Positions 29,554 through 62,893 of a DNA stretch of 64,000 nucleotides are shown here, piece after piece. A program made the position numbers and the translations under genes. The DNA comes from Schmidtea nova (Eukaryota), in contig CM097882.1 of NCBI GenBank assembly GCA_044892505.1, positions 572,880,001 through 572,944,000 on the forward strand, in the 5' to 3' direction. The notes below the pieces were generated by a model that did not search any database, was not told where the DNA came from, and worked only from the letters and a program-made list of their open reading frames with translations. Each line of letters opens with the position of its first letter. The stretch's first letter is position 1.

Positions 29554-30264
29554 ATGGATCCAAATTTGCCTATTACTCACATTATTTTGGATTTAGACGG
29601 ACTTTTAATAGATTCCGAAATCCTATTTGATGCGGCAATAAATGAAATATTAAAACCCTTCAATAAAACAATGAATTTTGAAATTAAAGAAAATTGCTTA
29701 GGGAAAAAACTATCAGAAAGTATTGCTATAATTATTAAATTGCTCAATGTTCCATTAGATGAAACTGACTTTATTTCACGGTATCAAGATATCAAGCACA
29801 AGGTCCTTCGAGATATTCAACTAAAAGAAGGAGCAAACAAACTAATAAATTACTTTTGGGAAAATGAAATACCCATGGCGATTGCAACTGGGTCGTCTGA
29901 TGAGAGCTTTGCTTTAAAAACTAAAGACTACAATGATTTATTCTCGAAAATACATCACAAAGTCTGCTCTGGAAGTGATAAACTCGTGAAAAAAACTAAA
30001 CCTGCTCCAGATATTTTTATTGAAGCTGCGGGACGATTTTTATCTGGTTTACCATTGTCACCAAGACAAGTTCTCGTTTTTGAAGACGCCGCCAACGGAG
30101 TTATAGCTGGATTGTCGGCAAACATGAAAGTAGTTTGGGTTCCAGATTCAAGAGTTAACACCTCGACTTTTAAGAATCATCCTGACGTTATGATTTTGAC
30201 AAGTTTGAAAAAGTTTCCACCTTCAAAATATGGTCTACCCGTATCTTCTGAATTCGATCCATAA
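29554..30264 (+). CDS. PUDP: HAD-superfamily phosphatase, pseudouridine-5'-phosphatase (HDHD1/PUDP, Gs1-like) type, 236 aa, intronless
   Basis: All four HAD motifs are intact: DLDGLLIDSE, ATGS, KPAPDIF, FEDAANG. Complete from ATG to TAA. Confidence 0.85.
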   Translation: MDPNLPITHIILDLDGLLIDSEILFDAAINEILKPFNKTMNFEIKENCLGKKLSESIAIIIKLLNVPLDETDFISRYQDIKHKVLRDIQLKEGANKLINYFWENEIPMAIATGSSDESFALKTKDYNDLFSKIHHKVCSGSDKLVKKTKPAPDIFIEAAGRFLSGLPLSPRQVLVFEDAANGVIAGLSANMKVVWVPDSRVNTSTFKNHPDVMILTSLKKFPPSKYGLPVSSEFDP

Positions 30265-40753: not shown

Positions 40754-41617
40754 TCAAATAGAATATAATTTACTACGATATGGGAGACGAAGTAATTCGG
40801 GTTTAAAATTCTCTAAATTATCTATAACCATTAAATTTTTATGAAAATCATGTAACGATACATCTATTATCGGATCCGCGATCCAAACAACTTTCATTCG
40901 AGCGGCTAGTGCTGCATCAACACCATCAGCGGTGTCTTCGAATACCAAAATGTTGTAGGGTCCAGATGGAACGTTGTCTTTAAATCGAGAAGCAGCAATT
41001 TCATATATAAATGGTTGGGGTTTTCCTTGGCGAGCTTCAGGGTCAGAACCGTAGCATACAGCGAAACTGATTTTATCAAATATCAGCTTGTGACGTGAAA
41101 TTTTGTATTTGTAATTTTCTTCGTTAGATTCTGTGACAACTGCCATTGGCATTTTGTGTTTCCTAAAATATTCGATGATTTGGCTGACACCGGGTAACAA
41201 TTCAACGTTCTTCAACAAGCATGGCGTTGATTCTTTATAATAATTAATGAATTCTTTCCTTGTCATGGGTAATCCTAGCTCCTTGACAATTATCTTCGCG
41301 GCACTTTCTATTCTTTTATTTTTCAATTTACGTTTCAAAGACAACGACAAATACTTTTCATACGGGTAGCATAGTTTATTTACAAACAACTCGAAATACC
41401 TTACTGAATTCAACAGTACTCCATCCAGATCAAAAATAACGTGTGTAATGGGCGCATTTCTAATTTCAATATCATTTAATTCCAGACTTTTTGGACTTTT
41501 GTCTTTTTTAGATTTTTTGTCATTTTTATTTTTCGGACTTCCACTTTTGTTGGGGCTTCCTTTTTTTGGACTACCTTTTTTGGGACTTGTTTTTTTAGGA
41601 CTACTGCTTTTCGGCAT
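40754..41617 (-). CDS. HAD phosphatase (HDHD1/PUDP-like paralogue) with an N-terminal SPKK-repeat basic tail, 287 aa from ATG
   Basis: DLDGVLLNS, VTES, GKPQP, FEDTADG. N-terminus MPKSSSPKKTSPKKGSPKKGSPNKSGSPK. Open and intronless. Confidence 0.85.
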   Translation of the reverse strand: MPKSSSPKKTSPKKGSPKKGSPNKSGSPKNKNDKKSKKDKSPKSLELNDIEIRNAPITHVIFDLDGVLLNSVRYFELFVNKLCYPYEKYLSLSLKRKLKNKRIESAAKIIVKELGLPMTRKEFINYYKESTPCLLKNVELLPGVSQIIEYFRKHKMPMAVVTESNEENYKYKISRHKLIFDKISFAVCYGSDPEARQGKPQPFIYEIAASRFKDNVPSGPYNILVFEDTADGVDAALAARMKVVWIADPIIDVSLHDFHKNLMVIDNLENFKPELLRLPYRSKLYSI

Positions 41618-44916: not shown

Positions 44917-45924
44917 AACTCGAGTATCCTTTTTAATAAAGGTTGAAATTTGATTCTTGAGTAATAAAGAAATAGGACGAGAAACACTAAAAATGAGATC
45001 TCATTTGCTATGCGACAAAAATCAAATGGATGAAGGAAAGATGAGAGTGACGATATTTAGATTAAAATTTGTTTAAATATTGCAGTTTTTGAATATAATA
45101 TATTTTTGGAAATAACGTCTTATATTATGATTAATAATGGAAATGTTTCTATGAGAAATTCCAAATTTAATAAAGATTACATAAACTAAGAGAAACCATA
45201 TGAATACATAACTTTAATTTTGCAAAATATTTACTTTTTCACAAATAAAATAATTCTTGCTGGAATAGATGAACTGGCGGAGATAATTCCAAGCCTTGAT
45301 TCGATAGGGATGATATTTATCCATGATAAAATCCAGATCTACAACAAACATAGTTAAATCATTTTATTGTGGTAAAATCATATCAAGCGTGTTGTTGATA
45401 TTATAAAAACTACAATAGAACAAATAAAATTTGACCGTACGTTAGGGAAAAAGAGAAGATATGCGTATGGTAAATAATTTACTAAAAAAATATCGTACGC
45501 GTATTGTACGTTCCTATTCCGCACTTATGATGAGCTTTGAATATTTGTTTATTCTGGTGAGTTGTTGATCATCAATATGACCTTGACGTCGTTATGGCTC
45601 ATCATCAACAACTCAACATACAAAGCATTAGTTTAAACATCTTGTTGCCGTCACAATGTAACGTTGGTAATGTAACAAATGGGTGGATTTCCGCAAACTG
45701 TGAGCGTCGAAAAATCAAGACTATGATTGACCGAAAATCGAAATGGGTTCAAGGGCCACCGATAGAAGGTTTAATGCCCATTTAATTCCCTCATTCATCA
45801 ATTAATCTATACAAATTGAATACCGGAAATTTTAACAAATATTCACATCAATAATAATTTATTATTACATCAAAGTAAACTATTTTCCAACATCAAAATA
45901 TTAACAAAACCTAATTCATGAAAG

Positions 45925-46778
45925 TGTTGGGGTTGTTATAATCACAGAAAATAAAATTAAAATTGCACAAATCAATAAAAATATAAAAATTGGAAAAATA
46001 ATAATTAATGTTCAAACATTAATTAAAAACTTTACAAAAAATTAAAATAAAGTTTGAGCGAGGGAAACTGGTATGGGAAGATGCCAAATGAGGAGACGAA
46101 TTCAAATATGGGTATATAAAATTGAAATAGGACCCCCAGAAAGAGAAATTAAGAAAATACAAATTAATTAAAAAATAATTAATCGTCTAATGGAAAACCC
46201 GAGCCAATGGGAAACCCGAGCCTATGGGAAACCCGAGCGATGGGGGAAACCCGGGGCATCAACAAAATCATTTAATTATCGAAATAAATTTAATGCCCCG
46301 AGAAGAGACGAAAAACCATTAGCGGCGAAACTCAATTAGGCGGCGGTCAAACAAATTTAATTATCTCATTTTCTCCAGATCCAATTAAGCCGACAGGATG
46401 ACAACAAAAAAATAGTATATAAACGGAGAGCAAATTGCCGATATCGCCATTTGGTCAAAGACAAAGTTTCGAGGCCAACCGATTGAAGAATAAAAGTAGG
46501 CAACGTGAATCAAATCGTTAGAAGACATTTGAAGGAGACGTCGAAAGAAAACCAAAAGTAGAGTTTATACTTAATCTATTGCGTGTCAGAGAGGGAGATA
46601 TCCCATTGGGTGTTCTACCCTCACGCGAAGAGTGCAGAACCGGCGTAACTTTTTGTGATAAAAAGAGTTGTGATCAATTGACAAATAAAGAAAGTTATTG
46701 TGTTGGGTCTTGTTTATTTTGTAATTGAAAGAGAACACCGGAGTCAGAAACTACCGACTTAACACCAATAACCCAACA
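45925..46778 (+). repeat. 5' LTR
   Basis: Direct repeat of 62040-62893. Differences seen at 46061/62176, 46378/62493 and 46705/62820. Confidence 0.97.
46416..46423 (+). promoter_or_regulatory. Candidate LTR TATA box (TATATAAA)
   Basis: Mid-LTR position downstream of the repeat array. A similar aaaatagtata(t)aaa occurs in solo LTR 16633-17548. Confidence 0.55.
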
Positions 46779-46782
46779 TATT

Positions 46783-46800
46783 TGGTGAGCCCGACGTGAT
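46783..46800 (+). promoter_or_regulatory. Primer-binding site, tRNA-Trp type
   Basis: TGGTGAGCCCGACGTGAT lies 4 nt after the LTR. Its complement ATCACGTCGGGCTCACCA matches the 3' end of metazoan tRNA-Trp as I recall it (ATCACGTCGGGGTCACCA) at 17/18. Confidence 0.85.
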
Positions 46801-47163: not shown

Positions 47164-50100
47164 ATGAGTAATACAAACAATCAGGATGATACGCCCATGT
47201 CCACCAGCAACGGCAATGGCAATGACTATGCTAGCTGCCAGAAACTGCCAGTAAATCAGTATGGAGGCGATCCAGTGGAATTCGTTGATTTTATGGCGGA
47301 TTACTACATGTACGCTACAGCCTATGGATGGAGCCAAGCGACAATGGTGCAAAGATTGCCACTATATCTGAAGGGAGCAGCGAGAGAAGCCTGGCAACAA
47401 ATTGACAAAAGAACAATTGCGAATGACTGGACGAAATTGAAAGATGCCTTAGCCGCGAAACTAATTGGAGGGGATATAAAACGGATAATGCGGCAGAAGT
47501 TCTATAATCGAGTGCAAAAATCAGAGGAATCGGTAAGTGAATTTGCGTACCACTTGACTACTCTTGCAGAGAAAGCATTCGAAGTAAAGCCGGAACAGAT
47601 TGAAGTGGCAAAGCAGGTGAAAGAATTGTTACAAGACCAGTTCTTAACGGGAGTCAAAAAGGAGATCAAAAAGGCATTATGTTATGTGGACTTCAATAAC
47701 TTTGATGAGTTAATCAAAAAGGCGATGAAAATTGAGTTAAATCTGAAAAGTTCACAGCAAAAATCAGAATCGTTTGCCATCATCAATGAACCCAGAGAAC
47801 GGTCCATAACTCCAGTCAGAAACAATCGGCTTCAGCAATCAATTAGTCCATCACCAACGTTTAGACAAAGATTTGAGCCAAATAAATCAACAAATGTTCA
47901 AATTGATGAAAAAGAGAGGCCAATTCAATGCAGCCATTGCCAACGAATAGGACATCATGTTAATCAATGTTGGTTCAAAAATAGATCTCCAAAAAGTCCA
48001 ACTCCAATTCAGTGTGATTATTGTCAAAGGATGGGACATAACAGCAATCAATGCTGGTCTAAAAACAACGTTCAACGAAGCCCAAAACGAATGTGGCCAG
48101 ATTGGTTGAAGGGTAATGGTGAGAAAAGTTTTAATAAACTAAATTTTAATGATCAGCGTAATAACGATAATGTGCAATGTTACAATTGTGGAAGGAAAGG
48201 ACATGTCTCTCGGAATTGTTTTGCTAGATCGAGGTCTCCATCAACTTCGCCATCCCCACAAAGAGATAGAGTGAACCTTCAAGGGCAAATTCAATGTCAT
48301 TCATGTAGAGGGTATGGACACATGGCTAGATCATGCCCGAGGAATGTCGACAAATTTCAGAAACCTATATTAAAAAAATCAATAAGATTTCAAAATGATA
48401 AACTGCAGACAGACAACGTGGCTTTTGTTCAATCAGATGATTTCAATGAAAAGATTGAAAACCAAGTGAAAGAAATGGGTCGACGTTTAGATCGTTTAAT
48501 GTCCAAGTTTGAATCTGATGATGAATTGGATAATCACATGATGTATGGATCGCAGCAAGACATGACAGAAGCTGACACGACAACTGGGTGTACAAAAGAC
48601 GATTTGGAAAGCGAAAAGGCTACCATGATGATGAAAAGACTTGAGAAATTACTAGAAGCTAGCGTGGAAGAATCATCTAAAATATTGGTATCGGTTAAAA
48701 GCCTGAGTCAAATGTCGTTAAGTATGAGAAAATTGAAAGGCGCGATTAATTTGTGTGCTAATTATTATCAAATAAATGTAACAAATAGAGAAGAAATTAA
48801 AGAATTGATGAGAAAATTTGGGAAAGCGTTTCGAGAAAATAAATGGTTAGATTTTATTTCTATTGATGTTGTTAATGAAAATGATAAAAATGTGATTACT
48901 TGTCGTTGTGAAGCCTATGATCGCGTAAAAGATTTAAAAAGGAGACTAAGAGAGAAATGTGAAGGCTGGGTAGTCGAATTAAAGTTTAAAAATAGAGATT
49001 TAGAAAATGATGAATATTTAATAGATTGTGGTCTTATACCAGGGAACAAAAATGAATTACAAATAGCCAGTATGATGAGTAACAGTGAAATGACAAGAAG
49101 TGATCCGATGCAAATAGTAAAGGAGCTAAATGATGTTTTATGTATTGGTGACGAAAACGAAATTAAAGAAATAGTAAAATTAATAGAGGAATCTGAATTT
49201 GGGCAAAAGGAAAAATTAGAACTTGCTAATGCGATACGACCCTATTTGTTTAGAAGAACGGGATATAGACAATGTTTAAAGAGAATAATGAGAAAATTGG
49301 GTAAAGAGCTTAGAAAAGATAGAGTTGAGTTAAATTCGTTAACAATTGCAATAGAATATGAAGATATTGGGAAAACTGAGTATGTAGAGGAACACTGGTG
49401 TACGAAAGTTCGAAAAGTGCGTAAAAGAGCTGCGGAAATGTTAGGTAAAGATGGAATTATAGTGCTGAGATATAAAGGGGAAGAATTGGATGACGATGAA
49501 TATTTATATGACTGCGGATGTGTGCCACAGGAACTGGATGAATATGGGTATTTAAGTACTAATGGAAGTCAGGGGTATTTGATAAATCGCATAATCGCAA
49601 ATAAAGAATATAATTCGAGGATGCTTGACAAAGTTGAATTTTCAGACACAGATGAGCAAACAGAAGAAATAAAGGAAAGCGAAATTGAAATAGTTACTGA
49701 TGATTATAATGGGGAAAAGAGGGTTAATAATAATGCTCAGACAGCAGAAATGGCAGTTATTGAAGATACAAATATCGAAAAAGGTGAAATAAAAAGTGCG
49801 AATACGAAGACTAGAACATTGTATGAGATGAAGAAAACCTTAGTAAAATTAGAGCAGGAAGTTGAAGAAACAAGTGACGTAATAAGAAATTTGGTTGGAG
49901 TCGTATACCCAATTCTAAAAATAGAAACAGAAACGGAAGAGGAATTGAAAGGAATAGTAGATGAAGTGAAAATCAGACTTCCAGGAGTAGTGCGGAAATT
50001 GGGCAAAGAGGATAGCTTTTGTAACTGTGAAGTAATAGAAAAGTTGATCGAAAATGGGATCGATAAAGAAGTAGTGCTAATAATTCTAACCTACGTTGTT

Positions 50101-53100
50101 TCAGAGATCGGTATTCATGCATTTACAAAGTCAGACAAGCTTGATAATTTAATTGACATTGCGGCTCGACTAATAAATGAGTCTTTAATTAATTGGCTGA
50201 GAGAGCGTGGAGGGTGGAAAACATTAAATTTATCGATAATAAAGAAAAGAAAGAAACCGGAAAATGATTCACCGCAAAGGCAATTAAACGGAAGAGTAAG
50301 TCCAAAACTAAGGAAGACGATGATATTCCCTTGGATAATGTTCATGATGATTATTCTATGTGCAGTTATTGCACAAACGACGTCATTGGTGGCATACGAT
50401 TGTTCACAAACCGAAATGGGGAAAATTTACTCAGTGGTTGATATGTCAGAGTGCCCAGACGCATACCCTCGAAAATTAAAGATTGAAAACGAAGTAAAAT
50501 ACCATGTGTATCAAGAGTCAGATTTACGGCGTACTAAAGTTAGAGAATGCATTGTAAAACGAACCACTTTTGTATTCTTCTGTGGTAAATGGAGCCATAC
50601 GTCATTAATCAAAATGCACGCCATTCCACGACCGGTGGATGTATTGCCGGAAAATTGCTTAACAGCCTTCCAAACGGGGGAATTAAAAATCAGCCCTGAA
50701 ATTCGATTAAAAGCGAAATTAAATCATCAAATTCGAGAAACATTAGTGGTGAAGGGAGTGATGAAATCAGACGGTGACTGTGAAGGTGAACCGTATAAAA
50801 TAAATGAGAAAATAATTAAACACACAGTGGTAATAGAGGAATACTTAACCGAATTGAGAATGTTCGAAGGATCTTTTGATGATGATACCGGAAAACTACA
50901 AACTCACCCATTTTGTAATATGAAGCAAACTAGTTGTCACACGGGAGAGTCAATCCTCGTTTACGATGTTAAAACCAATATATGTAACCTGGCTCATTTA
51001 AAAACAATGAATTTCAAAGAGTTAACCGGAGAGCAATTTAGGGAGAGACCAGACAACTTTAATATGAATTATAAACAAAATGGCACAGTAAGGTCAACTC
51101 CACTGTGGACAAGACAAACAGCGATGGTTTTAATGTCAACCTTGCCAACGGACAGCATGCGCTTTATTAAAAAGGAGATTACGAGCAAATGTGGTCAAAC
51201 AGTCTATGTAACAAATTACAAAGGAGTATATGTGGCAAAAACGACTGTACATGAAGCGAAGACGAGAATTCACAGAGATGATATAAAACTAACTCATTAT
51301 TTTAATAATAAAATTGATTATTTATTTCATTTTAGCCAAAATACCATGGAGAACATATATAGAGAAATGATCTTGAACGATTGTAAATTGAATAAAGAAA
51401 TACTTCGAAATCGAATGGCGATGGCGGTTACAAACCCGAATTTAGTAGCACCCATGCTAATTTCAGAAAATGGTATATTTGCTAGAATCTTTGGAGAAGC
51501 GCTATACAGTTACCGATGCAAAGAAATTACAGTGAAAATCGCAAAATATGAGAAATGTACAAATGAATTGCCAGTAAGTGTTGGCGGGAAACTACGATTT
51601 ATGGAACCGATAACCCGAATACTGCTGGAGGAACAAGTTAAACCAAAAACCTTGCAATGTAATCGATTATTAGCTCCATTATATCGCTTAGCACAAGATT
51701 CATGGATAGCGCTACCAGATTACCGAGGAGTAAGAACACCAGATAAATTGGAATTGACGAATTTGGAATACTTAATAAATTTTACATCAATGAATAAAAT
51801 GGCACAAATGGGTTTATATGCGAGCGAAGACATCGAAGAAGCCCAAAGAAATTTGTTATTTCCGTCAAAAAAGGAACGCGTGATTTCAGAAATGATTGAT
51901 ACCATATTGCCGAATGGAGAAGGGAAAGTTAACTACGAATACTTGCTGACACCTGATCATTTTAAACGAGCTACTTACAAAACAATGGAAAAGATTTGGG
52001 GAAAATTTATGTTTTTGGGACAAGCCTGTGCAGGTTTAATTGGTATTTATGTAATTGCAGTAACGGTAAAGGTGATAATATCACAAGTATTGTCCACTCA
52101 CAGGATATATACAATTTCCGGATGGTCATGGAAAATGATAATTGGTTGTATTCCATTTTTGGCTAGATTCTTCATTACAAGTCATCAATACAAAGAAATG
52201 GCAAATGTACGAGCGCAATTGAGAAATGATCAGAAAAGCGAAGAATCAATATGCGATCATGAGGATAAAAATAATGGTCCTGATAATGAGAACGGTGGCG
52301 GCAGATCAGAGCAAAATAATTTTCGAAGGAGCATAATGAAAAGTAGAATAGAACCCGAAACCAGGCTCTTGCTTGAACCAATGCCAAAATTAACAGGAAT
52401 TGACACTCTTTCTAAATGGTACACACCAACATTAATACCAACAGCTCCAATATACCCAAGTGAAAAGTTGAGAGAAATGAAGCCAGTTGATGAGATTAAA
52501 ATCGAACTAGAAAAGATTGAGCCATCAAGCGCCGAAATTGAAAGAAAGAACATGCTTGGGTTACCATGTAGTTACGCATTGATGACAATAGAAATTGGAG
52601 GAAAACAACCTAGAATATCCATACAGTTTAATGAAAGAAAAGTGGAAGCATTATTGGATTCAGGCTCGAGTCACAGTATAGTATCGGAGAGTTTCTTAAC
52701 GAGACAGGAAAAAGCGAAAATAAAGCCAACAACAAAAATTATTAAATCAATGACGCATAACGTATTAAATATTATTGGAAAACTAGAAGTAAAGTTGAAT
52801 ATAGGAAATCAGGAAGTAATTCATTGGGTATCAGTAATGAGAAAAAGCCCTGTCAAATGTTTGATTGGCATGGATATCATGGAACAATTACAAGGAATCT
52901 CACTGGACTTAAAGACGGGCAAATTAATAAAAAGGCAGACTGATGAGGTAGTGCATGAAGCAGGAGAGGTCTTTTTAAATCAAACGTTGGAAGTACCACC
53001 AAAAAGCGAAGTGATATACTACGCTAATGTAGAAAATGTTTCCGAAGAAGAGTGTATATTCGAACCAAATCAAAAACTAATAGAAAAGTACGACGTACCT

Positions 53101-56100
53101 ATGTGTGACGAAATAGTAAAAATTAAAGACAAAACCGTGCCAGTAAGAATAGCTAATTGTAGCACAAAATCTGTTCAGATGAAACCCAAAACAAAGTTGG
53201 GAAAACTGTCAAAAATGAAAGGGGAAGAAGTGCAAAAACTACCTAGAAATATCAAAATCTATAAAGAACCACAAGTGACAAGTGATGATCTAACAGAGGC
53301 ACAAAGACAAGAATTTGCGGCATTATTGAAAAGGTATAAAAATGCATTCGCGAAACATGAGTATGATCTAGGACTCACTCAGATAATTGAACACGAAATA
53401 CCATTGCTTGATGAAACTCCTATAAAAATACGACCGTACAGAATTCCATATATACATCAAGAAGAAAGCGATCGGCAAATTAAAGCCATGAAGGAATTCA
53501 AAATAATAAGAGATAGTTCATCACCATTCTCATCCTCAATAGTAGTAGTGAAAAAGAAGGACGGTGAATTACGATTTTGTGTTGATTATCGGAAATTAAA
53601 CCAAGTGACAAGAAAAGACACATATCCTATACCAGTTCCGCAAGAAATGTTTGATCAGATGGGAGAAGTACAATTCTTCACAGTAATCGATCTTAACAAA
53701 GGATATAACCAATTTAAAGTCAAAGAGGAAGACAGGAGAAAAACGGCATTTTCAGATGGGAAAGGACTATATGAGTTTAATGTGCTGCCATTCGGTCTAA
53801 CGGGAGCACCAGCTACATTCCAGAGAGGTATGAATTTTGTTTTGCGTGATATACCACATGCATTAGTCTATATTGATGATATAATAATATTTTCAAACAA
53901 TTTTCAGGGACACTTAAAAGATGTGGAAATAGTGTTTAAACGACTAATAGAAGCCAATTTAAAAATAAAACCTTCAAAATGTGAATGGGGAAAATCAGAA
54001 GTTGTTTACGTAGGGCACATAATTTCACGGAGAGGGTTACAACCAAACCCAGAAAATGTAGAAAAGATCAAAAAGTATCCGATCCCCAAAGATGCGGATC
54101 AAGTCCGACAATTTCTTGGATTAGCGAGCTATTATAGGAAATTCATAAGGAATTTTTCTCATGTAGCACAACCTTTAAACATGTTGCTAAAAAAGCAGAC
54201 TAAATTCAAATGGGTAACAGCTCAACAAGAAGCATTTGATAAATTAAAAGAGAGTCTTATTAAACAACCAATATTGAGATGTCCGAACTTCAAAAAACCA
54301 TTTATACTGATGACAGATGCAAGCAATTTTGCATTAGGAGCAGTACTTGGACAGCAAGTAGAAGGTGAGAAAGATCACGTAATTGCTTATGCAAGCCGTT
54401 CATTAAAACCGCATGAAAAAAATTATTCCACAATCGAAAAAGAAACGCTAGCATTAGTATATGGGATAACTAATTTTCGACAATATTTGGTTGGGAGAAA
54501 GTTTATTGTATTTACGGATCATAACCCATTACAATGGTTAATGAAGCATCGAGATTCGGCAAGCAAGCTGATTAGGTGGTCAATTGCATTACAGGAGTAC
54601 GATTTTGAAATTAAGTACCGTACGGGGAAGTCAAATGGAAATGCGGACGCAATGTCGAGAATCCCTGAAGAAAATATTATTCAAAATGAAGTAAATTATG
54701 AAAATACGATATTTATGGCAATTAAAACGGCAAATAATATGAAGGAATTACAGGGTGATCAGGAAAACGATGTTGAAGTGAATCAATTGCGGAAACATGC
54801 TGTCACAATAAAAAGAGAAAGTGACTGGAAGCACATTGCGAAAGAAAAACATAAATACGTCATCCATGACGGGTTGTTGAAATGTGTGAAAAATGAAAAC
54901 TTATTAATAGTAGTACCGGCAAAACATCGAACAGCATTACTGTTGTTGTATCATGATGGGGCATTGGGAGGGCATTTATCTGCTCGAAAAACATTATCAA
55001 GATTAAAACAGAAATATTACTGGGATACGATAGAGCAAGACGTCAGACAATGGTGTCACACTTGTGAAGTTTGTCTGACCAGGCGAAACACAGGAAGAAA
55101 AATAAAAGTTCCTTTAAAACCTATGACCGTGCCGGTAGCACCAATGGAAATGACAGCAATGGATATTGTTGGTCCACTACCAGAAACAACCAATGGCAAT
55201 AAATATATCATCGTATTTTGTGATTACCTAACAAAATGGCCGGAAGCATATGCAATGCAGAATCAAAAGGCAGAAACTGTTGCGAAAATATTTGTAGAAA
55301 ACATCATATTTCGGTACGGAGCACCAAGAAAATTGCTCACAGACCAAGGAACAAACTTTCAAAGCGAATTATTTAAATCTATAACCGAATTATTCGGAAT
55401 CCTAAAACTTAATACATCCCCATATCACCCACAAACAGATGGGTTAGTCGAAAGATTTAATGGAACATTAATTAACATGATTTCGTCGTATGTAAACAGG
55501 AAACAAAAAGATTGGGATTTGTTCATTAAGCCATGTTTGTTTGCATATCGAAATGCAGTGAATGAAAGCACCGGTGAAACACCATTTTATCTTATGTACC
55601 TACGACGAAACAATATGCCGATTGACTTAAAGTTTCAACCACCAATCTCACAATACATGGACGTATCCGATTACAAAGTAGTAATGCAGGAAAGACTGCA
55701 ATCAGTATGGGTCAAAGCGGGATTGAAAATAAGGCATAATCAAGAAGCATATAAAGAATGCTATGATAAACGTGCGCATGCACATGATATTAAAGTTGGA
55801 GATTTGGTGTACATAAATAAACCAGAGCCAACGAAAGGGCTGTCTACCAAACTACAGCGACCATTTAAAGGACCTTATTTGGTGTGTGATACAACCGAGA
55901 CGAATTTAAAATTGCGTCCACAAAATAATAAAAAGGCGGGAACGATTGTCATTCATGTAAACCGATGTAAGAAAGTTCCGCTGGAAGAAAGATATCCCTT
56001 GAGGTCAAAACCAAGTAACGGCGAAAAAGAAAAAGTAATTAAACAAAAATTTACAAAAAACCCTACTCAATTAAACTACCTAAGTAAAACGTTGTTGATA

Positions 56101-57267
56101 ACAACAGTGATGATGATCAATGTTTTGTGTGCGTCGGCAATACGAACATTCCCAGCATATGCAATGAAGAAAGTCCCATTATTAGAAAAGATCGATGTGT
56201 ATTCAACATGTACCCAAATAGTATGGATCTATTATTGCGAAGTGACGGAAGAAATAGAGATAAATAATCTGCTAAACTATTTCGAGCCCCCAGTAAAATT
56301 AAACTATAACAAAAATACACATGTCGCTCGTGAATTAGCAATGAATTATAAATACCCTTGGATAATAACACGAGTGAATCTTAAAGATAATTTGACAAGA
56401 GTCCATGATCTAATACGTGTCAGTGTATGGACAAAAAGACTACAAGACCGCGTATCCATTGAACCAGTAATCAATGGAATTAATGTATATTGGAACTCTC
56501 ATGAATCCCAGCAAGTAAAAACTGTCTTTCAAAATTATGCTATCGATACACTGAACAGCAGAAAACCATTTATAAAATATGTTAATTTAAAATTATTTCA
56601 GATGTATAATATTCAGATACAATATTTTGAAAAGTTGTTGTATGAAAATGGAACAGACAGCACCGATCAGTGGGTTCTAATCCATTCCAGTCAACACACG
56701 ATAAACTTGATCAATGAAACAAACAGAGTTATCTTTCATGTGTATAATCAGACGATAAATGTCACCCGTCAAACGTACCCCAATCAAAGAGCTGTTTTAT
56801 ACTATTGTGGAAAAGTACAAGGAATATTAGAGAACAGAAATGAATCAAAGATCTTATCTTTCCGACAACTACGGTCAAAATCAAACTCTAAAATAGTGCT
56901 AATAAAAATCAAGTATTATCGGCGAGCCAAATACTCCAATCTTTGGCAATTAACCTTGGTAGAGGATAAATTTGTTCGAGTGTCATATACTGAGATGGAC
57001 AGTTACCCACGGAAGTTAAATCAATCAACGCGAATCACAACCGCTCACATCAAGGTGTTAAATCCAAGCAATAAAACTATATCAGCTTCACCTACGGAAA
57101 ATGAATTTCTATGTGTAACATTATTAATAACAATTATCATTATAACAATATTTGTCATTATTCTCATATCTGTCATCATCTTTGAAATTCGAAAAACTGA
57201 AAGACATTCTACGAATCAATCCGAGGCCCCGAGACCTTGGATCGATTACGAGGAGACGTTTGTATAG
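47164..57267 (+). CDS. Single polyprotein Gag-Ubl-Ubl-Bcl2-like-Env-PR-RT-RH-IN-second glycoprotein, 3367 aa from the first ATG
   Basis: Uninterrupted 10.1-kb ORF. The track start at 47134 is a TTG; the first ATG is at 47164. Domains are listed separately. Confidence 0.95.
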   Translation: MSNTNNQDDTPMSTSNGNGNDYASCQKLPVNQYGGDPVEFVDFMADYYMYATAYGWSQATMVQRLPLYLKGAAREAWQQIDKRTIANDWTKLKDALAAKLIGGDIKRIMRQKFYNRVQKSEESVSEFAYHLTTLAEKAFEVKPEQIEVAKQVKELLQDQFLTGVKKEIKKALCYVDFNNFDELIKKAMKIELNLKSSQQKSESFAIINEPRERSITPVRNNRLQQSISPSPTFRQRFEPNKSTNVQIDEKERPIQCSHCQRIGHHVNQCWFKNRSPKSPTPIQCDYCQRMGHNSNQCWSKNNVQRSPKRMWPDWLKGNGEKSFNKLNFNDQRNNDNVQCYNCGRKGHVSRNCFARSRSPSTSPSPQRDRVNLQGQIQCHSCRGYGHMARSCPRNVDKFQKPILKKSIRFQNDKLQTDNVAFVQSDDFNEKIENQVKEMGRRLDRLMSKFESDDELDNHMMYGSQQDMTEADTTTGCTKDDLESEKATMMMKRLEKLLEASVEESSKILVSVKSLSQMSLSMRKLKGAINLCANYYQINVTNREEIKELMRKFGKAFRENKWLDFISIDVVNENDKNVITCRCEAYDRVKDLKRRLREKCEGWVVELKFKNRDLENDEYLIDCGLIPGNKNELQIASMMSNSEMTRSDPMQIVKELNDVLCIGDENEIKEIVKLIEESEFGQKEKLELANAIRPYLFRRTGYRQCLKRIMRKLGKELRKDRVELNSLTIAIEYEDIGKTEYVEEHWCTKVRKVRKRAAEMLGKDGIIVLRYKGEELDDDEYLYDCGCVPQELDEYGYLSTNGSQGYLINRIIANKEYNSRMLDKVEFSDTDEQTEEIKESEIEIVTDDYNGEKRVNNNAQTAEMAVIEDTNIEKGEIKSANTKTRTLYEMKKTLVKLEQEVEETSDVIRNLVGVVYPILKIETETEEELKGIVDEVKIRLPGVVRKLGKEDSFCNCEVIEKLIENGIDKEVVLIILTYVVSEIGIHAFTKSDKLDNLIDIAARLINESLINWLRERGGWKTLNLSIIKKRKKPENDSPQRQLNGRVSPKLRKTMIFPWIMFMMIILCAVIAQTTSLVAYDCSQTEMGKIYSVVDMSECPDAYPRKLKIENEVKYHVYQESDLRRTKVRECIVKRTTFVFFCGKWSHTSLIKMHAIPRPVDVLPENCLTAFQTGELKISPEIRLKAKLNHQIRETLVVKGVMKSDGDCEGEPYKINEKIIKHTVVIEEYLTELRMFEGSFDDDTGKLQTHPFCNMKQTSCHTGESILVYDVKTNICNLAHLKTMNFKELTGEQFRERPDNFNMNYKQNGTVRSTPLWTRQTAMVLMSTLPTDSMRFIKKEITSKCGQTVYVTNYKGVYVAKTTVHEAKTRIHRDDIKLTHYFNNKIDYLFHFSQNTMENIYREMILNDCKLNKEILRNRMAMAVTNPNLVAPMLISENGIFARIFGEALYSYRCKEITVKIAKYEKCTNELPVSVGGKLRFMEPITRILLEEQVKPKTLQCNRLLAPLYRLAQDSWIALPDYRGVRTPDKLELTNLEYLINFTSMNKMAQMGLYASEDIEEAQRNLLFPSKKERVISEMIDTILPNGEGKVNYEYLLTPDHFKRATYKTMEKIWGKFMFLGQACAGLIGIYVIAVTVKVIISQVLSTHRIYTISGWSWKMIIGCIPFLARFFITSHQYKEMANVRAQLRNDQKSEESICDHEDKNNGPDNENGGGRSEQNNFRRSIMKSRIEPETRLLLEPMPKLTGIDTLSKWYTPTLIPTAPIYPSEKLREMKPVDEIKIELEKIEPSSAEIERKNMLGLPCSYALMTIEIGGKQPRISIQFNERKVEALLDSGSSHSIVSESFLTRQEKAKIKPTTKIIKSMTHNVLNIIGKLEVKLNIGNQEVIHWVSVMRKSPVKCLIGMDIMEQLQGISLDLKTGKLIKRQTDEVVHEAGEVFLNQTLEVPPKSEVIYYANVENVSEEECIFEPNQKLIEKYDVPMCDEIVKIKDKTVPVRIANCSTKSVQMKPKTKLGKLSKMKGEEVQKLPRNIKIYKEPQVTSDDLTEAQRQEFAALLKRYKNAFAKHEYDLGLTQIIEHEIPLLDETPIKIRPYRIPYIHQEESDRQIKAMKEFKIIRDSSSPFSSSIVVVKKKDGELRFCVDYRKLNQVTRKDTYPIPVPQEMFDQMGEVQFFTVIDLNKGYNQFKVKEEDRRKTAFSDGKGLYEFNVLPFGLTGAPATFQRGMNFVLRDIPHALVYIDDIIIFSNNFQGHLKDVEIVFKRLIEANLKIKPSKCEWGKSEVVYVGHIISRRGLQPNPENVEKIKKYPIPKDADQVRQFLGLASYYRKFIRNFSHVAQPLNMLLKKQTKFKWVTAQQEAFDKLKESLIKQPILRCPNFKKPFILMTDASNFALGAVLGQQVEGEKDHVIAYASRSLKPHEKNYSTIEKETLALVYGITNFRQYLVGRKFIVFTDHNPLQWLMKHRDSASKLIRWSIALQEYDFEIKYRTGKSNGNADAMSRIPEENIIQNEVNYENTIFMAIKTANNMKELQGDQENDVEVNQLRKHAVTIKRESDWKHIAKEKHKYVIHDGLLKCVKNENLLIVVPAKHRTALLLLYHDGALGGHLSARKTLSRLKQKYYWDTIEQDVRQWCHTCEVCLTRRNTGRKIKVPLKPMTVPVAPMEMTAMDIVGPLPETTNGNKYIIVFCDYLTKWPEAYAMQNQKAETVAKIFVENIIFRYGAPRKLLTDQGTNFQSELFKSITELFGILKLNTSPYHPQTDGLVERFNGTLINMISSYVNRKQKDWDLFIKPCLFAYRNAVNESTGETPFYLMYLRRNNMPIDLKFQPPISQYMDVSDYKVVMQERLQSVWVKAGLKIRHNQEAYKECYDKRAHAHDIKVGDLVYINKPEPTKGLSTKLQRPFKGPYLVCDTTETNLKLRPQNNKKAGTIVIHVNRCKKVPLEERYPLRSKPSNGEKEKVIKQKFTKNPTQLNYLSKTLLITTVMMINVLCASAIRTFPAYAMKKVPLLEKIDVYSTCTQIVWIYYCEVTEEIEINNLLNYFEPPVKLNYNKNTHVARELAMNYKYPWIITRVNLKDNLTRVHDLIRVSVWTKRLQDRVSIEPVINGINVYWNSHESQQVKTVFQNYAIDTLNSRKPFIKYVNLKLFQMYNIQIQYFEKLLYENGTDSTDQWVLIHSSQHTINLINETNRVIFHVYNQTINVTRQTYPNQRAVLYYCGKVQGILENRNESKILSFRQLRSKSNSKIVLIKIKYYRRAKYSNLWQLTLVEDKFVRVSYTEMDSYPRKLNQSTRITTAHIKVLNPSNKTISASPTENEFLCVTLLITIIIITIFVIILISVIIFEIRKTERHSTNQSEAPRPWIDYEETFV
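47242..48336 (+). other. Gag: capsid-like region plus four CX2CX4HX4C zinc knuckles (47929-48336)
   Basis: YGGDPVEFVDF...LPLYLKGAAREAW, RVQKSEESVSEF, DQFLTG. Knuckles CSHCQRIGHHVNQC, CDYCQRMGHNSNQC, CYNCGRKGHVSRNC, CHSCRGYGHMARSC. Confidence 0.92.
48853..49065 (+). other. Ubiquitin-like domain 1 in the polyprotein
   Basis: ISIDVVNENDKNVITCRCEAYDRVKDLKRRLREKCEGWVVELKFKNRDLENDEYLIDCGL follows the ubiquitin pattern (..ITLEV.PSDTI..VK.KI...LIF.GK.LED..TL.DY.I). Confidence 0.75.
49339..49596 (+). other. Ubiquitin-like domain 2 in the polyprotein
   Basis: TKVRKVRKRAAEMLGKDGIIVLRYKGEELDDDEYLYDCGC is paralogous to domain 1 (L.[FY]K...L..DEYL.DCG). Confidence 0.7.
49900..50230 (+). other. Bcl-2-like domain
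   Basis: BH2-like LINWLRERGGW (50185-50217) is preceded by a hydrophobic helix (GIDKEVVLIILTY, BH1/alpha5 position) and a BH3-position helix (VVRKLGKE), and followed by a hydrophobic anchor. Confidence 0.65.
50386..52180 (+). other. Chuvirus-type (class III-like) envelope fusion glycoprotein with preceding signal segment (50320-50385) and TM (52006-52090)
   Basis: LVAYDC start, DGDCEG, CGQTVYVT, FNNKIDY, DCKLNKEILRN..AMA..NP, GEALYSYRC, CTNELPV..FMEPITRIL, GLYASEDI....LLFP, WGKFMFLG...AGLIGI, GWSW. This motif order is the one I recognise from chuvirus glycoproteins. Confidence 0.85.
52580..52920 (+). other. Aspartic protease
   Basis: VEALLDSGSSHSIV (DSG at 52657-52665) and LIGMD. Confidence 0.92.
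53400..54200 (+). other. Reverse transcriptase (Ty3/Gypsy type)
   Basis: SPFSSSIVVVKKKDGELRFCVDYRKLN, LPFGL..APATFQR, YIDD (53869-53880), YVGH, FLGLASYYRKFI. Confidence 0.97.
54300..54670 (+). other. RNase H
   Basis: LMTDASNFALGAVL, YSTIEKETLA, VFTDHNPL, NADAMSR. Confidence 0.96.
54940..55980 (+). other. Integrase (HHCC, DDE, GPY/F)
   Basis: YHD..GGH, CHTCEVC, MDIVGPLP, TDQG, YHPQTDGLVERFN, FKGPYLV. Confidence 0.96.
56092..57267 (+). other. Second predicted type I membrane glycoprotein fused after integrase
   Basis: Signal-like LLITTVMMINVLCASA, then ~320 aa with 8 N-X-S/T sequons, then a 28-aa hydrophobic TM (57106-57189) and a 25-aa tail. Family not recognised. Confidence 0.7.
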
Positions 57268-57663
57268 TGAGATACAATTATTTGCATGCAATTATGGTAG
57301 ATTAATAGTTTAGTATCTAGTGACATTTTCTTTTATAATTGTTTCATGTGGATCTGCACTCTTCGGCATGGGAAAGTGGGAAAGTGATTTGATTGGCTAA
57401 TACTAAAAGAGTGAGGGGGTAGAAAAAGGGATAGAAAAATCAAAAGGGGGGTATATAAGGTAAACTTAGACATCATAAAATTTAAATTAATCTTAAACAA
57501 AAGTAAAATTTCAAATAACTAAGAAAACTTCAATTAAATCGGTAATTTTATATTTTTATTTATACCGCTACCAACTAAGACAGTATCCTTTGGGTACTCC
57601 ATCTTAGTCCTAGCGTCAAAATTAAATTAATTCAAATTTAAATTATAATCGTTTTAGTAAGAA

Positions 57664-59112
57664 ATGGAGCAGATACAATGGGCCAGAGAAACGTACGACA
57701 GCTATCTGAAGATGATGAGAAATCATGCCGGCCAAAGAAGATTCCAGATAGTCAACAATTTGCAAATTCCAAATTATCTAAGGTTGGACGACAGAAAAAT
57801 GAAAGTCCAAGTATTCACTATAGACAGAAAATCAAAATTTCAAATGACAAAGGAACTAAAAATATCAGATAAAGACGAATACTATATCCACGTCATCAGA
57901 GGGACGGTGGAAATTCTAGACGAAAATGATCAAATATGGTGGGAGATCAAAAAACTTTCGTCATGGAAAATCAAGGAGCCAGCAATCGGGAAAATATTAC
58001 GAGCAGCAAACGAGGATGCCACAATTGTAGTGGAAACAAGGATCAAAAACGAAATTGATGATGTACCCAGCGAGGAGCCAATGCAGAAAGAAAATCTTGA
58101 ACTCCTACAAATAACAAAGGAAATGTTAAAAAGAAAATTGTCCTTTATTCGGAGGGAAATGGGTATAGAAGAAATTCGGAACAAAATATTGTTCATTGAT
58201 GCCGAATATGGAACCAGCATGACTGGAAAGATGATTCCCTTGGCGGTGGCCATTATGAACTATTACGGGAAAGTTGTGAAAAATGTCTTCTTAACACCTA
58301 GAGGAAGACTCAAACATTTCAATTCAAACATCCATGGAATAACGGAGGTGGCGAGCCGAAATCAAAAAGACCAGTACGAAGAGATGAAGGAAATCCAAAA
58401 ACTGACAATCGGGAAAATACTCGTAGGACATGACCTACATGCAGAATTACAATTCCTAGGGATATGGGTAAATCATCTTTATGGCATACGGGATCTAGCT
58501 ACTGCTCAAGCGTTGCAATTGAAAGGAGTGACAAGAAGAGGGGAATGGTATAAGCTCAAAACCATAATGAAGGAACTCTATGGAGAAGAGATGCAAATGG
58601 GTATTCACTCAGCTTTAGAGGACGTCAAAAGCATTCGGAAGATATATTTGGGACTAGAAAACCTTTGGATCGATGATATATCAATGCCTAAGATAGGGCC
58701 ATCAAAAAAGTATTCATTGCAAGAATATAAAACTAGGCAACATATGGAATCGATATCTGAAATTCCCAGATTAGAAAGAACGATAATGATCGTAGACGAG
58801 ACAAACATGGAAGTGGATGAAATAGATACAGGAACAGAAAAGAGTAATCAAAAGTTGAAATGGGCAACTGAAATGTATTTAGAGGAGATTGAAGAGAATT
58901 GCGAATGGATGGAATCCACAAAATTAACAAGAATCCAATTATCGATGGAATATGGCCCAATGGAACAAAAGGAGGATCGCAAAAGGAAAGCTTCAGCATC
59001 CAACGTCGACGTCGGGGAAACAATGACCATCAACGGGGTGGTGTATGAAAAAGAAGAAACAATTATCAGATATCGAAATGGGGCAAAGCGGCTGGAAATG
59101 AAAATGAACTAA
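57664..59112 (+). CDS. ORF2, 482 aa, with a central REX4/ISG20-like DEDDh 3'-5' exonuclease domain (~58186-58650)
   Basis: FIDAEYG (Exo I), IHGIT, KILVGHDLHAEL (Exo II), IRD, YKLKT, MQMGIHSALED (Exo III). Confidence 0.85.
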   Translation: MEQIQWARETYDSYLKMMRNHAGQRRFQIVNNLQIPNYLRLDDRKMKVQVFTIDRKSKFQMTKELKISDKDEYYIHVIRGTVEILDENDQIWWEIKKLSSWKIKEPAIGKILRAANEDATIVVETRIKNEIDDVPSEEPMQKENLELLQITKEMLKRKLSFIRREMGIEEIRNKILFIDAEYGTSMTGKMIPLAVAIMNYYGKVVKNVFLTPRGRLKHFNSNIHGITEVASRNQKDQYEEMKEIQKLTIGKILVGHDLHAELQFLGIWVNHLYGIRDLATAQALQLKGVTRRGEWYKLKTIMKELYGEEMQMGIHSALEDVKSIRKIYLGLENLWIDDISMPKIGPSKKYSLQEYKTRQHMESISEIPRLERTIMIVDETNMEVDEIDTGTEKSNQKLKWATEMYLEEIEENCEWMESTKLTRIQLSMEYGPMEQKEDRKRKASASNVDVGETMTINGVVYEKEETIIRYRNGAKRLEMKMN

Positions 59113-62021
59113 AATTATATTAATTATATATGTGATTATTTATAAATAAATTTAGTAATTCTGTCTCAGTTCGTTAAAATGGCGCCCACCGGTCAAACCC
59201 CCACAACAAAAAAAAATTTTTTTTTTAATAAATAAATAAAACACAAAAAAGAATTGAATAAATAAAAATTCTGAAGCTAAATAAAAACCAACAACCTTTA
59301 ATCACCGGGGGTGTACTCTCCTGGACANNNNNNNNNNNNNNNNNNNNNNNNNNNNNNNNNNNNNNNNNNNNNNNNNNNNNNNNNNNNNNNNNNNNNNNNN
59401 NNNNNNNNNNNNNNNNNNNNNNNNNNNNNNNNNNNNNNNNNNNNNNNNNNNNNNNNNNNNNNNNNNNNNNNNNNNNNNNNNNNNNNNNNNNNNNNNNNNN
59501 NNNNNNNNNNNNNNNNNNNNNNNNNNNNNNNNNNNNNTCATTATACGGTCACTATAAGTGCGATATCAAAAGATAATTTCGATCCTTATAAGTAGTATAT
59601 ACAATGATTAAAATTCAGGACGAAATAAAAACAAAAAACTCTAAATCAATCTCCCTGAGTAGTGATTGAAAGTTGTCAATTATTATATTATAGTTATTAA
59701 TCAGATTATTGGTATTATATCGTCAAAGGGATGATGGAATCAATAAAACAAACATTGGCAAAAAAAAAATAAATAAATAAATAAAACAGAATAAAATAAT
59801 AATAAAATGAAATTATCATAAATATCATAAAAGCATAAGGCGAAGACAGTTATTATTAAATTCATCAACATTGTGATCACATTATTAGAATATCACTCTA
59901 TTATCATTAGTAGTATAAGGGGCATTATCATTATTATTATTATTATTGTTGTTGTTGTCATTGTTGCTATATGATGACAATTTTAAATCTAAATAAAAAC
60001 CAACAGCCCTTAATCGCCGGGATCATACTCTCCTGGACAGCGATTGAGGGTTGCCAGTTATTATTGTTATTATTATTATTATTATTATTATTGTTATTAT
60101 TATCATTATTATTATTATTATTAATTGATAGTATTGTTAATTTTTCAATAATTAATTTTTCCAATAATAGTTTATTAAAGATTTATCGAGGCCCTCTACA
60201 CATATACTAGTCAGCTTGTTAAGGGAAATCTGTCTAAGGTCAGATCCTGCTTAGTCGACACACACCAACACAGGATTTTTGCCTTTCGATGAGAATTTTC
60301 CCCATACACCGACATATTATCTATCTTTAAAGTATCATTGATATTAAAAACTAGGAAAATAAAAGGATTTTCAAAAAATTATTAATTAATTTACAAAAAA
60401 AATCAATTATTCTGTCAAAATTATTTTGACTTTTCATTCAATTTTTGACAATCTGAAATTAAAATATATCGATATAAAATAGTCGCAAATATCAATTTTT
60501 AATCAATATTTCTATTTTAGTACTAGTCAATTGTGACAGCTGTAGTCGCGTCTTTTCTGAGAGCTTTTCATCACTTTTCAATATTAAAAATTTAAAAAAA
60601 AAAATAAATAAATAATAAACAAAATATATATAAATATGTATAAGTATAAAAAGAGTATACGTATATATATATATATGTATATGTATATGTATGAGTATAG
60701 GTGTATATATATGAATATATAGATAAAAGTCAATTAAATAAAATGAAATAAAATTTACTTATTGTTATTATAAATGATATTTTCAAAATTTCAAAATGAA
60801 TAATAATTGAAATTCATAAACTTTCCCCTGGTTTTCTAAATAAGAAATTAATTCGTTTCTGGAAATACTATTAATTAACACATATCATCGCCAAATTGTC
60901 TATAATGAATCGGCTTTTCAAGATGACTAAATATAAAATGAAGCCTCGAGTAAGTTTGCGAGCAATGATCGATTGATATTCCGTCTGATCACTAGTCTGC
61001 GGGGGGATACATGGAACCAGATGGTGGACAGGTTCTGGATTGATGATGTGCACGGGTAATACGATGATCCCATATGGTAGCATTAGTTGAAATTGCCATT
61101 TCATGGTCTTTATGATCAATTATTGCTGCCTTTGTGTCTACAATGTCGGAAATATCGATAATGACGCAGCCGCTACTCCAGTAATTATTTTCCTCGACGA
61201 TTATAAAATAATGAGAGAAAAAATTCTTTCGCGTCGCTTATATTTGCGGCGCCCTCTCTCATCTTTGGGAATTAACTGAATTTGATCTCGCAATTATTCT
61301 CTGTAGAATGACAGTCCCAAAATCTAATTATCTTCCAAGCTGAGAGTAATTGAATTTCAGTGACGGTTCGAATTTTTACCCGTTACTATATCAACCAAAA
61401 AAAAATGAAATTTAATAACAGTTCTTGAATAATTTTGTTGACATTTTCCTATGCGCATTTTTCGTGTTCTTCATCTACGAAAATTAATTGCATTTCGCTC
61501 CAGAATTTTCCCTGGAGAATTTATATTGAATCATTAATAGAAAGCACGAGTTTGCAGATGCCCAATCTTAGAATTTGATTTTATGAAAAGAATTCGGANN
61601 NNNNNNNNNNNNNNNNNNNNNNNNNNNNNNNNNNNNNNNNNNNNNNNNNNNNNNNNNNNNNNNNNNNNNNNNNNNNNNNNNNNNNNNNNNNNNNNNNNNN
61701 NNNNNNNNNNNNNNNNNNNNNNNNNNNNNNNNNNNNNNNNNNNNNNNNNNNNNNNNNNNNNNNNNTGGTTATTATTATTAATATTAGTACTATCATTAGT
61801 ACTGNNNNNNNNNNNNNNNNNNNNNNNNNNNNNNNNNNNNNNNNNNNNNNNNNNNNNNNNNNNNNNNNNNNNNNNNNNNNNNNNNNNNNNNNNNNNNNNN
61901 NNNNNNNNNNNNNNNNNNNNNNNNNNNNNNNNNNNNNNNNNNNNNNNNNNNNNNNNNNNNNNNNNATTGTTAGGAGGTATGATCAAAAATATGTGTATAT
62001 GTAGATTCGAGGACGAATCTT

Positions 62022-62037
62022 GAAAATAAAGGGGAGA
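62022..62037 (+). promoter_or_regulatory. Polypurine tract
   Basis: gaaaataaaggggaga lies 2 nt before the 3' LTR. Confidence 0.85.
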
Positions 62038-62039
62038 TA

Positions 62040-62893
62040 TGTTGGGGTTGTTATAATCACAGAAAATAAAATTAAAATTGCACAAATCAATAAAAATATA
62101 AAAATTGGAAAAATAATAATTAATGTTCAAACATTAATTAAAAACTTTACAAAAAATTAAAATAAAGTTTGAGCGGGGGAAACTGGTATGGGAAGATGCC
62201 AAATGAGGAGACGAATTCAAATATGGGTATATAAAATTGAAATAGGACCCCCAGAAAGAGAAATTAAGAAAATACAAATTAATTAAAAAATAATTAATCG
62301 TCTAATGGAAAACCCGAGCCAATGGGAAACCCGAGCCTATGGGAAACCCGAGCGATGGGGGAAACCCGGGGCATCAACAAAATCATTTAATTATCGAAAT
62401 AAATTTAATGCCCCGAGAAGAGACGAAAAACCATTAGCGGCGAAACTCAATTAGGCGGCGGTCAAACAAATTTAATTATCTCATTTTCTCCAAATCCAAT
62501 TAAGCCGACAGGATGACAACAAAAAAATAGTATATAAACGGAGAGCAAATTGCCGATATCGCCATTTGGTCAAAGACAAAGTTTCGAGGCCAACCGATTG
62601 AAGAATAAAAGTAGGCAACGTGAATCAAATCGTTAGAAGACATTTGAAGGAGACGTCGAAAGAAAACCAAAAGTAGAGTTTATACTTAATCTATTGCGTG
62701 TCAGAGAGGGAGATATCCCATTGGGTGTTCTACCCTCACGCGAAGAGTGCAGAACCGGCGTAACTTTTTGTGATAAAAAGAGTTGTGATCAATTGACAAA
62801 TAAAGAAAGTTATTGTGTTAGGTCTTGTTTATTTTGTAATTGAAAGAGAACACCGGAGTCAGAAACTACCGACTTAACACCAATAACCCAACA
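62040..62893 (+). repeat. 3' LTR
   Basis: Direct repeat of 45925-46778, followed by the TSD AAAG. Confidence 0.97.

Follow-up and report, generated by a model that had tools for sequence, protein, structure and literature searches.

A predicted cupin–exonuclease gene after pol in Burro-like LTR elements of Schmidtea nova, with catalytically dead sister versions under selection

Introduction

What does an exonuclease gene do inside an LTR retrotransposon? The question arises in a 64,000-nucleotide stretch of the Schmidtea nova genome (contig CM097882.1, positions 572,880,001 to 572,944,000 of the forward strand), hereafter the window, whose own numbering is used below, on the plus strand unless stated otherwise. 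A preliminary description of this DNA had noted an intact open reading frame, ORF2, between two LTRs and had supposed that its product, once captured, either trims small RNAs or double-stranded RNA in evasion of silencing or processes cDNA ends. Exonuclease cargo is already known from rotifer LTR elements and KolobokD transposons, counter-defence proteins are known from few animal retrotransposons, and in the animal group concerned RNAi knock-down and PIWI biology are established.

Architecture of the element

ORF2 lies in a Burro-like LTR element of 16,969 bp. The 5′ LTR (45925–46778; 854 bp, TG...CA) is preceded by a 4-bp target duplication, AAAG, at 45921–45924, and AAAG is found again after the 3′ LTR (62040–62893). 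The two LTRs are 99.6% identical, with three mismatches over 854 bp, and the element is a large, recently active jumping gene. The primer-binding site (46783–46800), complementary to the 3′ end of the host tRNA-Trp, is separated from the LTR by a 4-nt spacer, and the polypurine tract occupies 62022–62037. ORF1 (47164–57267) encodes a polyprotein of 3367 aa comprising, in order, Gag, zinc knuckles, a weak BCL2-like segment, a fusion glycoprotein, protease, RT, RNase H, integrase and a membrane-type domain. The glycoprotein, at aa 1059–1705, is of the Monjiviricetes type (Pfam PF24664, E 2e-87) and places an in-frame env after gag and ahead of pol, a Burro-like trait; the BCL2-like segment ahead of it is a weak match that falls under the curated Pfam cut-off (PF00452, E 0.006). 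No Pfam match to MATH, BIR or ankyrin domains was obtained in ORF1.

Burro, or GYPSM1, elements are giant Ty3/gypsy elements of planarians, and the available account of them (PMC6431247) describes a single long ORF1 carrying Gag, CCHC knuckles and a BCL2-like segment, an in-frame env with a mononegavirus-type fusion protein between gag and pol, the series PR-RT-RH-IN, and accessory ORFs; the domain order of the window element is the same. The two differ in size, at 17 kb and 3367 aa in the window versus more than 30 kb and about 4900 aa in Burro (PMC6431247), and an exonuclease or cupin ORF, present here, does not appear in that account of Burro. Because of its 17 kb size and the lack of a MATH, BIR or ankyrin match in ORF1, the element, assigned from its domain order, is filed as Burro-like rather than Burro-1.

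Past the integrase (about 55980–57264), ORF1 encodes a second predicted membrane protein of ~330 aa, with a hydrophobic leader, a transmembrane segment and 49–59% identity among families A, B1, B2 and B3 (defined below), for which Pfam gave no convincing match. Its C-terminal YEETFV presumably resembles a PDZ-binding end.

The exonuclease domain of ORF2

ORF2 (57664–59112) runs intact from ATG to TAA over 482 codons. Residues 173–340 (58180–58683) constitute a predicted REX4/ISG20-type exonuclease of DEEDh composition, and the three motifs recognized in the preliminary description were confirmed: Exo I as FIDAE (D179, E181), Exo II as GHDLHAE (E261), and Exo III as HSALED (H315, D320), the last being H-x4-D with His rather than Tyr. 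The subfamily proposed at that time also holds. In a single-sequence phmmer search against the PDB, ORF2 matched ISG20L2 (E 2.6e-7), ISG20 (1.1e-5), the PolC exonuclease (0.006) and SDN1 (0.01), and with a family profile the first two improved to 4.8e-32 and 9.8e-24. The nuclease model has a DnaQ-like fold and superimposes on ISG20 with Z 19.4 and an rmsd of 2.1 over 159 aligned residues; the ISG20L2/REX4-type comparison gave Z 18.2, with PAN2 (15.6) and DnaQ (14.5) lower. By both sequence and fold, the nearest relatives are thus ISG20, ISG20L2 and REX4, the nearest named sequences being RNA exonuclease 4. Identity to a REX4 query is nevertheless only about 30%, compared with 49–57% for the host's own intron-bearing REXO4 gene. 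Even with E relaxed to 1, this copy of ORF2 matched no Pfam family, though its sister copies score above the RNase_T threshold.

The Glu in Exo II, already remarked on as replacing the usual Asp, lies opposite D94 of ISG20. It is compatible with catalysis because coronavirus nsp14 is active as a DEEDh enzyme in which the Glu is catalytic (PMC7654266, as far as that source goes), and because the 51 catalytically intact rows of the ORF2 family are split between 29 Glu and 22 Asp; Glu and Asp also alternate among relatives of nsp14 ExoN. The latter is a proofreading subunit of a replicase, however, and has no specific similarity to ORF2 past the superfamily (PMC7654266). The Exo I D-x-E is found in 49 of the 51 intact rows, the other two having gaps. 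Judged from its sequence, this copy of ORF2 is probably an active nuclease.

Its substrate is less easily predicted. Arg53 of ISG20 reads the ribose 2′-OH and may give that enzyme its RNA preference (PMC9157404, in the portion available). The equivalent residue is N220 in ORF2, and Arg occurs at this position in none of the 51 intact family rows versus 41 of 42 cellular rows; an RNA preference is therefore not to be assumed, and DNA is a possible substrate. With ISG20, ISG20L2 and REX4, then, ORF2 shares the fold and the Exo I–III motifs, but it differs in the Exo II Glu, the lost Arg53 equivalent, HGI in place of SGI, and an N-terminal cupin. By fold, its nuclease is a derived offshoot of the REX4/ISG20 subfamily and no ordinary member.

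The last 140 residues of ORF2 are modelled with low confidence. They include a possible nuclear localisation signal, RKRK (residues 439–442; 58978–58989), in an acidic region; a basic cluster occurs in five of five active families, although its position varies. A short C-terminal beta-rich segment (59008–59109), also of low model confidence, can be aligned in families A–C and in protein P0002. The full ORF2 model, with pTM 0.64 and 131 residues at pLDDT <50, suggests that the two domains may pack as a unit.

An N-terminal cupin domain

Residues 1–130 (57664–58053) are predicted to form a cupin, or double-stranded beta-helix (DSBH), domain, which is new beyond the preliminary description. Modelled alone from 39 sequences, they gave a confident structure (pLDDT 88), whose matches were cupins, AlkB-type oxygenases and the N-terminal domain of vaccinia C16, effectively tied at Z 7.2–9.3; among the matches listed, cupin and 2OG-oxygenase folds dominate (best Z 9.3). 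The C16 domain was the top Foldseek match (E 3.9e-4, Z 8.4), and the title of PDB entry 8ag5 has C16 bound to Ku70/Ku80; many cupins and AlkB-type folds score equally well (Z 7–9.3), so this match shows a shared fold only. Identity to C16, cupins and AlkB-type oxygenases is 5–16%. The model thus supports a DSBH fold without naming a family, and residues 1–140 found no usable match in the ESM Atlas.

Metal ligands in these folds are HxH...E...H in a cupin or HxD...H in an AlkB-type enzyme. ORF2 has neither an HxD nor an HxH motif in residues 1–130, unlike metal-binding cupins and AlkB enzymes, and a metal enzyme is unlikely because only P36, N37 and H76 are nearly invariant (39 rows). An AlkB-type demethylase activity was considered and rejected, the metal ligands being lacking.

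Copies, families and selection

A genome search with ORF2 yielded 2255 candidates, and 150 of these, when scored, comprised 139 family A and 11 sister-family matches, so the genome holds at least 139 matches to family A. When 83 near-full ORFs, drawn from 101 loci, were clustered, they fell into families A, B1, B2, B3 and C, with L072 standing alone. ORF2 is kept after pol in all five families, at 37–58% identity: pol was present in eight of ten upstream stretches examined, with ORF2 following it in all eight, and the other two were family C copies from which pol is deleted. The end of ORF1 lies directly upstream of ORF2 in 29 of 30 fetched copies, and all three Exo motifs are kept in 80 of 81 full-length copies. 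Among family A copies with an identical nuclease segment, 32 of 36 kept the full frame; older copies carry stops. The copies were found by similarity to ORF2, and elements that lost the gene are therefore uncounted.

Internally deleted family C elements made up nine of 23 fetched stretches (L122, L123, L161–L166 and L173). In these, env and pol are gone, and gag is followed directly by the ORF1 end and an open ORF2 of 471 aa; the retention of ORF2 is partly by choice, as the elements were found through it.

Pairwise dN/dS was 0.7–1.0 among the youngest B2 and C copies (0.98 for the youngest B2) and 0.10–0.24 between sublineages of A, B2 and B3, where the family A copies had been chosen by nuclease identity, which lowers their dN. 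The lowest value in C was only 0.31, and the sole B1 pair, at low divergence, gave 0.58. Between families, nuclease dN was 0.17–0.44, but dS was saturated and the ratio is thus not quantitative. The dN/dS comparison that had been suggested as a check therefore reveals purifying selection between sublineages and families rather than a decaying passenger, and we regard it as virtually certain that the gene is real and selected. Its parts diverge at very different rates, identity between families A and C being 89% in RT, 53% in the nuclease and 31% in the cupin; ORF2 evolves like a host-facing gene.

Catalytically dead sister versions

A genome search with one dead version revealed two further autonomous and recently amplified families here, D1 and D2, in which the same gene has lost all catalytic residues. 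It lies after a complete env-pol ORF1, in the same place as ORF2, and its frames are open in dozens of copies. In D1, pN/pS was about 0.1–0.2 for pairs without the truncated L178 and higher, at 0.4–0.6, for pairs with it; for two D2 copies, pS was 0.13–0.23 and pN 0.01–0.02. The dead versions of both families are under purifying selection. Their tRNA-Trp primer site and 3-nt LTR spacer are those of the active B2 and B3, and families A and C, both active, have spacers of 4 and 5 nt. Because D1 and D2 were amplified without catalytic residues, retrotransposition in this group needs no ORF2 nuclease in cis; a supply in trans by the active families is possible. A single genome thus contains seven families that carry the gene, of which five are active and two dead, alongside derivatives present in single copy, a natural experiment that separates binding from cutting.

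Catalytic residues are lacking in 21 of the 72 family rows, and in the tree the dead versions form a clade of about 20 rows. P212, R213, D236 and G274–R276 are kept in dead copies, although these may be structural rather than nucleic-acid binding; Pfam recognized no family in the dead versions.

Three degenerate versions, each with a long open frame, were found away from any recognisable element and have lost most or all catalytic residues: L072 (844–2607, minus strand; 588 aa), L195 (532–4155, plus strand; 1208 aa) and L197 (4312–5853, minus strand; 514 aa), each in the numbering of its own locus. L072 and L197 are single-copy by genome searches of their own, and L195 appeared once. Neither L195 nor L197 has an ORF1 match nearby, and the surroundings of L072 hold no more than decayed remnants of RT and IN. 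All three are candidates for domestication. L072 was also considered as the cellular donor and rejected, for its branch falls within the family and only one of its five catalytic residues is left.

Wider family and origin

A search of representative proteins returned 2186 at E up to 0.001; among the best 150, about 70 are members of the ORF2 family; of the others, those that carry a name are REX4. A quick tree was built from 115 nuclease domains after 21 short rows had been set aside; it drew on 40 of the 66 cellular rows that remained and on no rotifer DEDDy rows. In this tree, whose search was not optimal, the 72 family rows fell on one side of a long branch with SH-aLRT 99. A tree joining the family to the host REXO4 scored above this quick free tree, with p-AU 0.685. 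The phylogeny that had been proposed as a check gives the family as one clade on a long branch and does not reject a grouping with the host REXO4, which is one possible donor.

Seventeen metagenome loci carry relatives, and 13 of them, mostly short, have no ORF1 match. L134 has the layout of the window, and in L125 the gene lies upstream of gag. Upstream neighbours of the ORF2 homologue include an adjoining TRAF-MATH in L126 and TRAF-MATH plus RING in L128; such ubiquitin- and apoptosis-type cargo is described in Burro (PMC6431247, in the portion available). IMG/VR scans gave no relatives, and P0002 matched generic RNase_T clusters only in the ESM Atlas. A search of longer proteins (1198–3420 aa) gave no polyprotein fusion and matched nothing but fish REXO1, with E no better than 7e-8; this is weak evidence.

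Expression signals around ORF2

The longest word common to the five intergenic regions is the 10-nt ATTTGATTGG, a reverse CCAAT box (57387–57396), whereas 300 shuffles gave 8 nt at most. Common to all five active families, it is likely an internal promoter element and suggests that ORF2 may have its own promoter. A TATA-like box belonging to this predicted promoter lies at 57452–57458, with similar words seen by eye in B1, B2, B3 and C. A 116-nt 5′ UTR intron, GTAAT...TTTAG, is predicted at 57542–57657, ending 6 nt before the ATG; a donor-like word at −123 to −140 and an acceptor-like word at −2 to −6 occur in four of five families. Within it, at 57581–57596, is a hairpin-like GTATCC-TTT-GGGTAC, with look-alikes by eye in B1, B2 and B3. 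A possible poly(A) signal, AATAAA (59145–59150), is located 33 nt past the stop codon, a weak candidate in an AT-rich context. Also downstream of ORF2, AAAATGGCGCCCACC (59166–59182) has look-alikes in B1, B2 and B3; we take both it and TGGCGCCC, likewise past ORF2, to resemble a YY1 site. The latter was considered as a second primer site and rejected, since the true one comes after the 5′ LTR.

Discussion

The reading that we favour, at a probability of about 0.5, is that ORF2 is a host-directed accessory that binds single-stranded 3′ ends, in the active lineages breaks them down as well, and so dampens silencing or RNA sensing. The protein would be expressed from the internal promoter with its short 5′ intron, as a free, unpackaged product, and would enter the nucleus through RKRK. 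It would bind, and then presumably degrade, single-stranded nucleic-acid 3′ ends; the targets would most likely be RNAs that serve silencing or RNA sensing, or by-products of the element that set these pathways off. Dead versions would achieve as much by holding their targets sequestered, so that binding would be the conserved core and cutting optional. Because selected sister versions have lost the cutting site, ORF2 likely acts on host defences rather than on copying; the predicted separate expression unit, fast divergence relative to RT, the company of ubiquitin- and apoptosis-type cargo, and dispensable catalysis all argue for the same conclusion. It is also in keeping with the silencing of Burro elements by planarian PIWI (PMC8532177) and with a RIG-I-like response to dsRNA in planarians (PMC8797187), as these are described in the portions available.

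Several points count against a host-directed role. The fast evolution of ORF2 also fits relaxed constraint, and dead and active versions may differ in function. Moreover, piRNA 3′ ends are 2′-O-methylated and resist many such enzymes. Of the activities suggested at the outset, two fare poorly. That the processing of cDNA ends depends on ORF2 is unlikely because the autonomous D1 and D2, with the same primer site and spacer as B2 and B3, lost catalysis yet are under purifying selection. Trimming of dsRNA is unsupported, since the closest enzyme, ISG20, is described as cleaving single strands (PMC9157404, in part) and arenavirus NP is absent among the 50 matches listed.

One rival is a protein-binding adaptor. 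Its cupin and nuclease folds might jointly attach to a host protein and block it, much as a poxvirus DSBH protein of the C16 type binds Ku, any nuclease activity being secondary. The selected clade of dead versions and a cupin that lacks the canonical metal motif, with C16 as its top Foldseek match, speak for such an adaptor, but that match is one of many tied folds, and the five catalytic residues have survived deep divergence in about 50 rows; we consider this explanation unlikely. A restriction factor aimed at viruses or at rival retroelements, in the manner of ISG20, TREX1 or PML-like exonucleases, would benefit element and host alike. The closest enzymes are antiviral (PMC9157404) and PML-like DEDDh enzymes restrict retrotransposons (PMC10123124), in the parts of those sources at hand; three single-copy loci with long open frames persist outside recognisable elements, and pol-deleted family C copies kept ORF2. 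Those same loci, however, have lost most or all catalytic residues, and at least seven related families have been co-amplified in one genome, making such a role distinctly unlikely.

A replication factor, trimming the 3′ ends of element RNA, primer remnants or cDNA ends before integration, would explain the fixed place after pol in seven families and is at ease with the 4- and 5-nt spacers of the active A and C; such roles have been proposed for rotifer DEDDy ORFs (PMC5408684) and the KolobokD DEDDh (PMC9587614), as far as these accounts extend. It is improbable all the same, as D1 and D2 amplify without catalytic residues from the primer site and 3-nt spacer of B2 and B3, the gene is outside the polyprotein (the lack of a fused form among proteins of 1198–3420 aa being weak evidence), L125 has it upstream of gag, and divergence is much faster than in RT. 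That ORF2 is a decaying or neutral passenger is scarcely credible: the values of 0.98 among the youngest B2 copies and 0.58 for one B1 pair, and the stops in older copies, might be so read, but dN/dS near 1 in young copies is the expected pattern of post-insertion mutation, and strong selection between sublineages and families refutes it.

The host-directed reading can be taken further, though only as a tentative proposal that we find somewhat doubtful: the cupin–exonuclease may be an anti-defence module of Burro-like elements, maintained by selection as both cutter and dead decoy against the small-RNA or RNA-sensing machinery, from which the host kept at least three dead single-copy genes. 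If true, it would be a retroelement suppressor of animal RNA defence derived from a ribosome-maturation nuclease.

The nearest precedent is the DEDDy ORF3 of the rotifer Juno and Vesta LTR elements and Terminons (PMC5408684). Like ORF2, it is a stand-alone 3′–5′ exonuclease ORF after pol in which DEDD has become DEED, but it is of the RNase D/mut-7 type, whereas ORF2 is DEDDh of the REX4 type, and the available account of ORF3 includes no cupin and no selected dead lineage (PMC5408684); the two are independent captures. The rotifer half of the DEDDy precedent cited in the preliminary description is thus in print, and the nematode half was not found in the literature searched. KolobokD also carries DEDDh cargo, resembling exuperantia, TREX and ERI1, but is a DNA transposon (PMC9587614), and PMC6338049 and PMC5718144 mention DnaQ-like domains as accessories, all within the portions available. 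A cupin–exonuclease architecture was not found in Pfam, the ESM Atlas or the literature searched, and a REX4-type enzyme joined to a cupin, with selected dead sisters, is unreported in that literature, the original Burro paper (Grohme et al. 2018) standing outside both statements. That paper reportedly lists further Burro domains, and its figures or supplements may already annotate the nuclease.

Some minor observations concern the surroundings. Part of the 5′ LTR (46000–46250) is 71–75% like window positions 16758–17021, 22269–22600 and 28687–28897, with 17-nt repeats. Elsewhere the window encodes a hAT transposase, intact at 876 aa (23369–25999, minus strand), and HAD-family hydrolases in two ORFs without introns (29554–30264, plus; 40754–41617, minus). 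Across the genome, tRNA-Trp gave 1984 pattern matches, and at L217 (G000:C3 from 128,022,754) tRNA-Trp genes form a tandem array with a spacing of ~282 nt.
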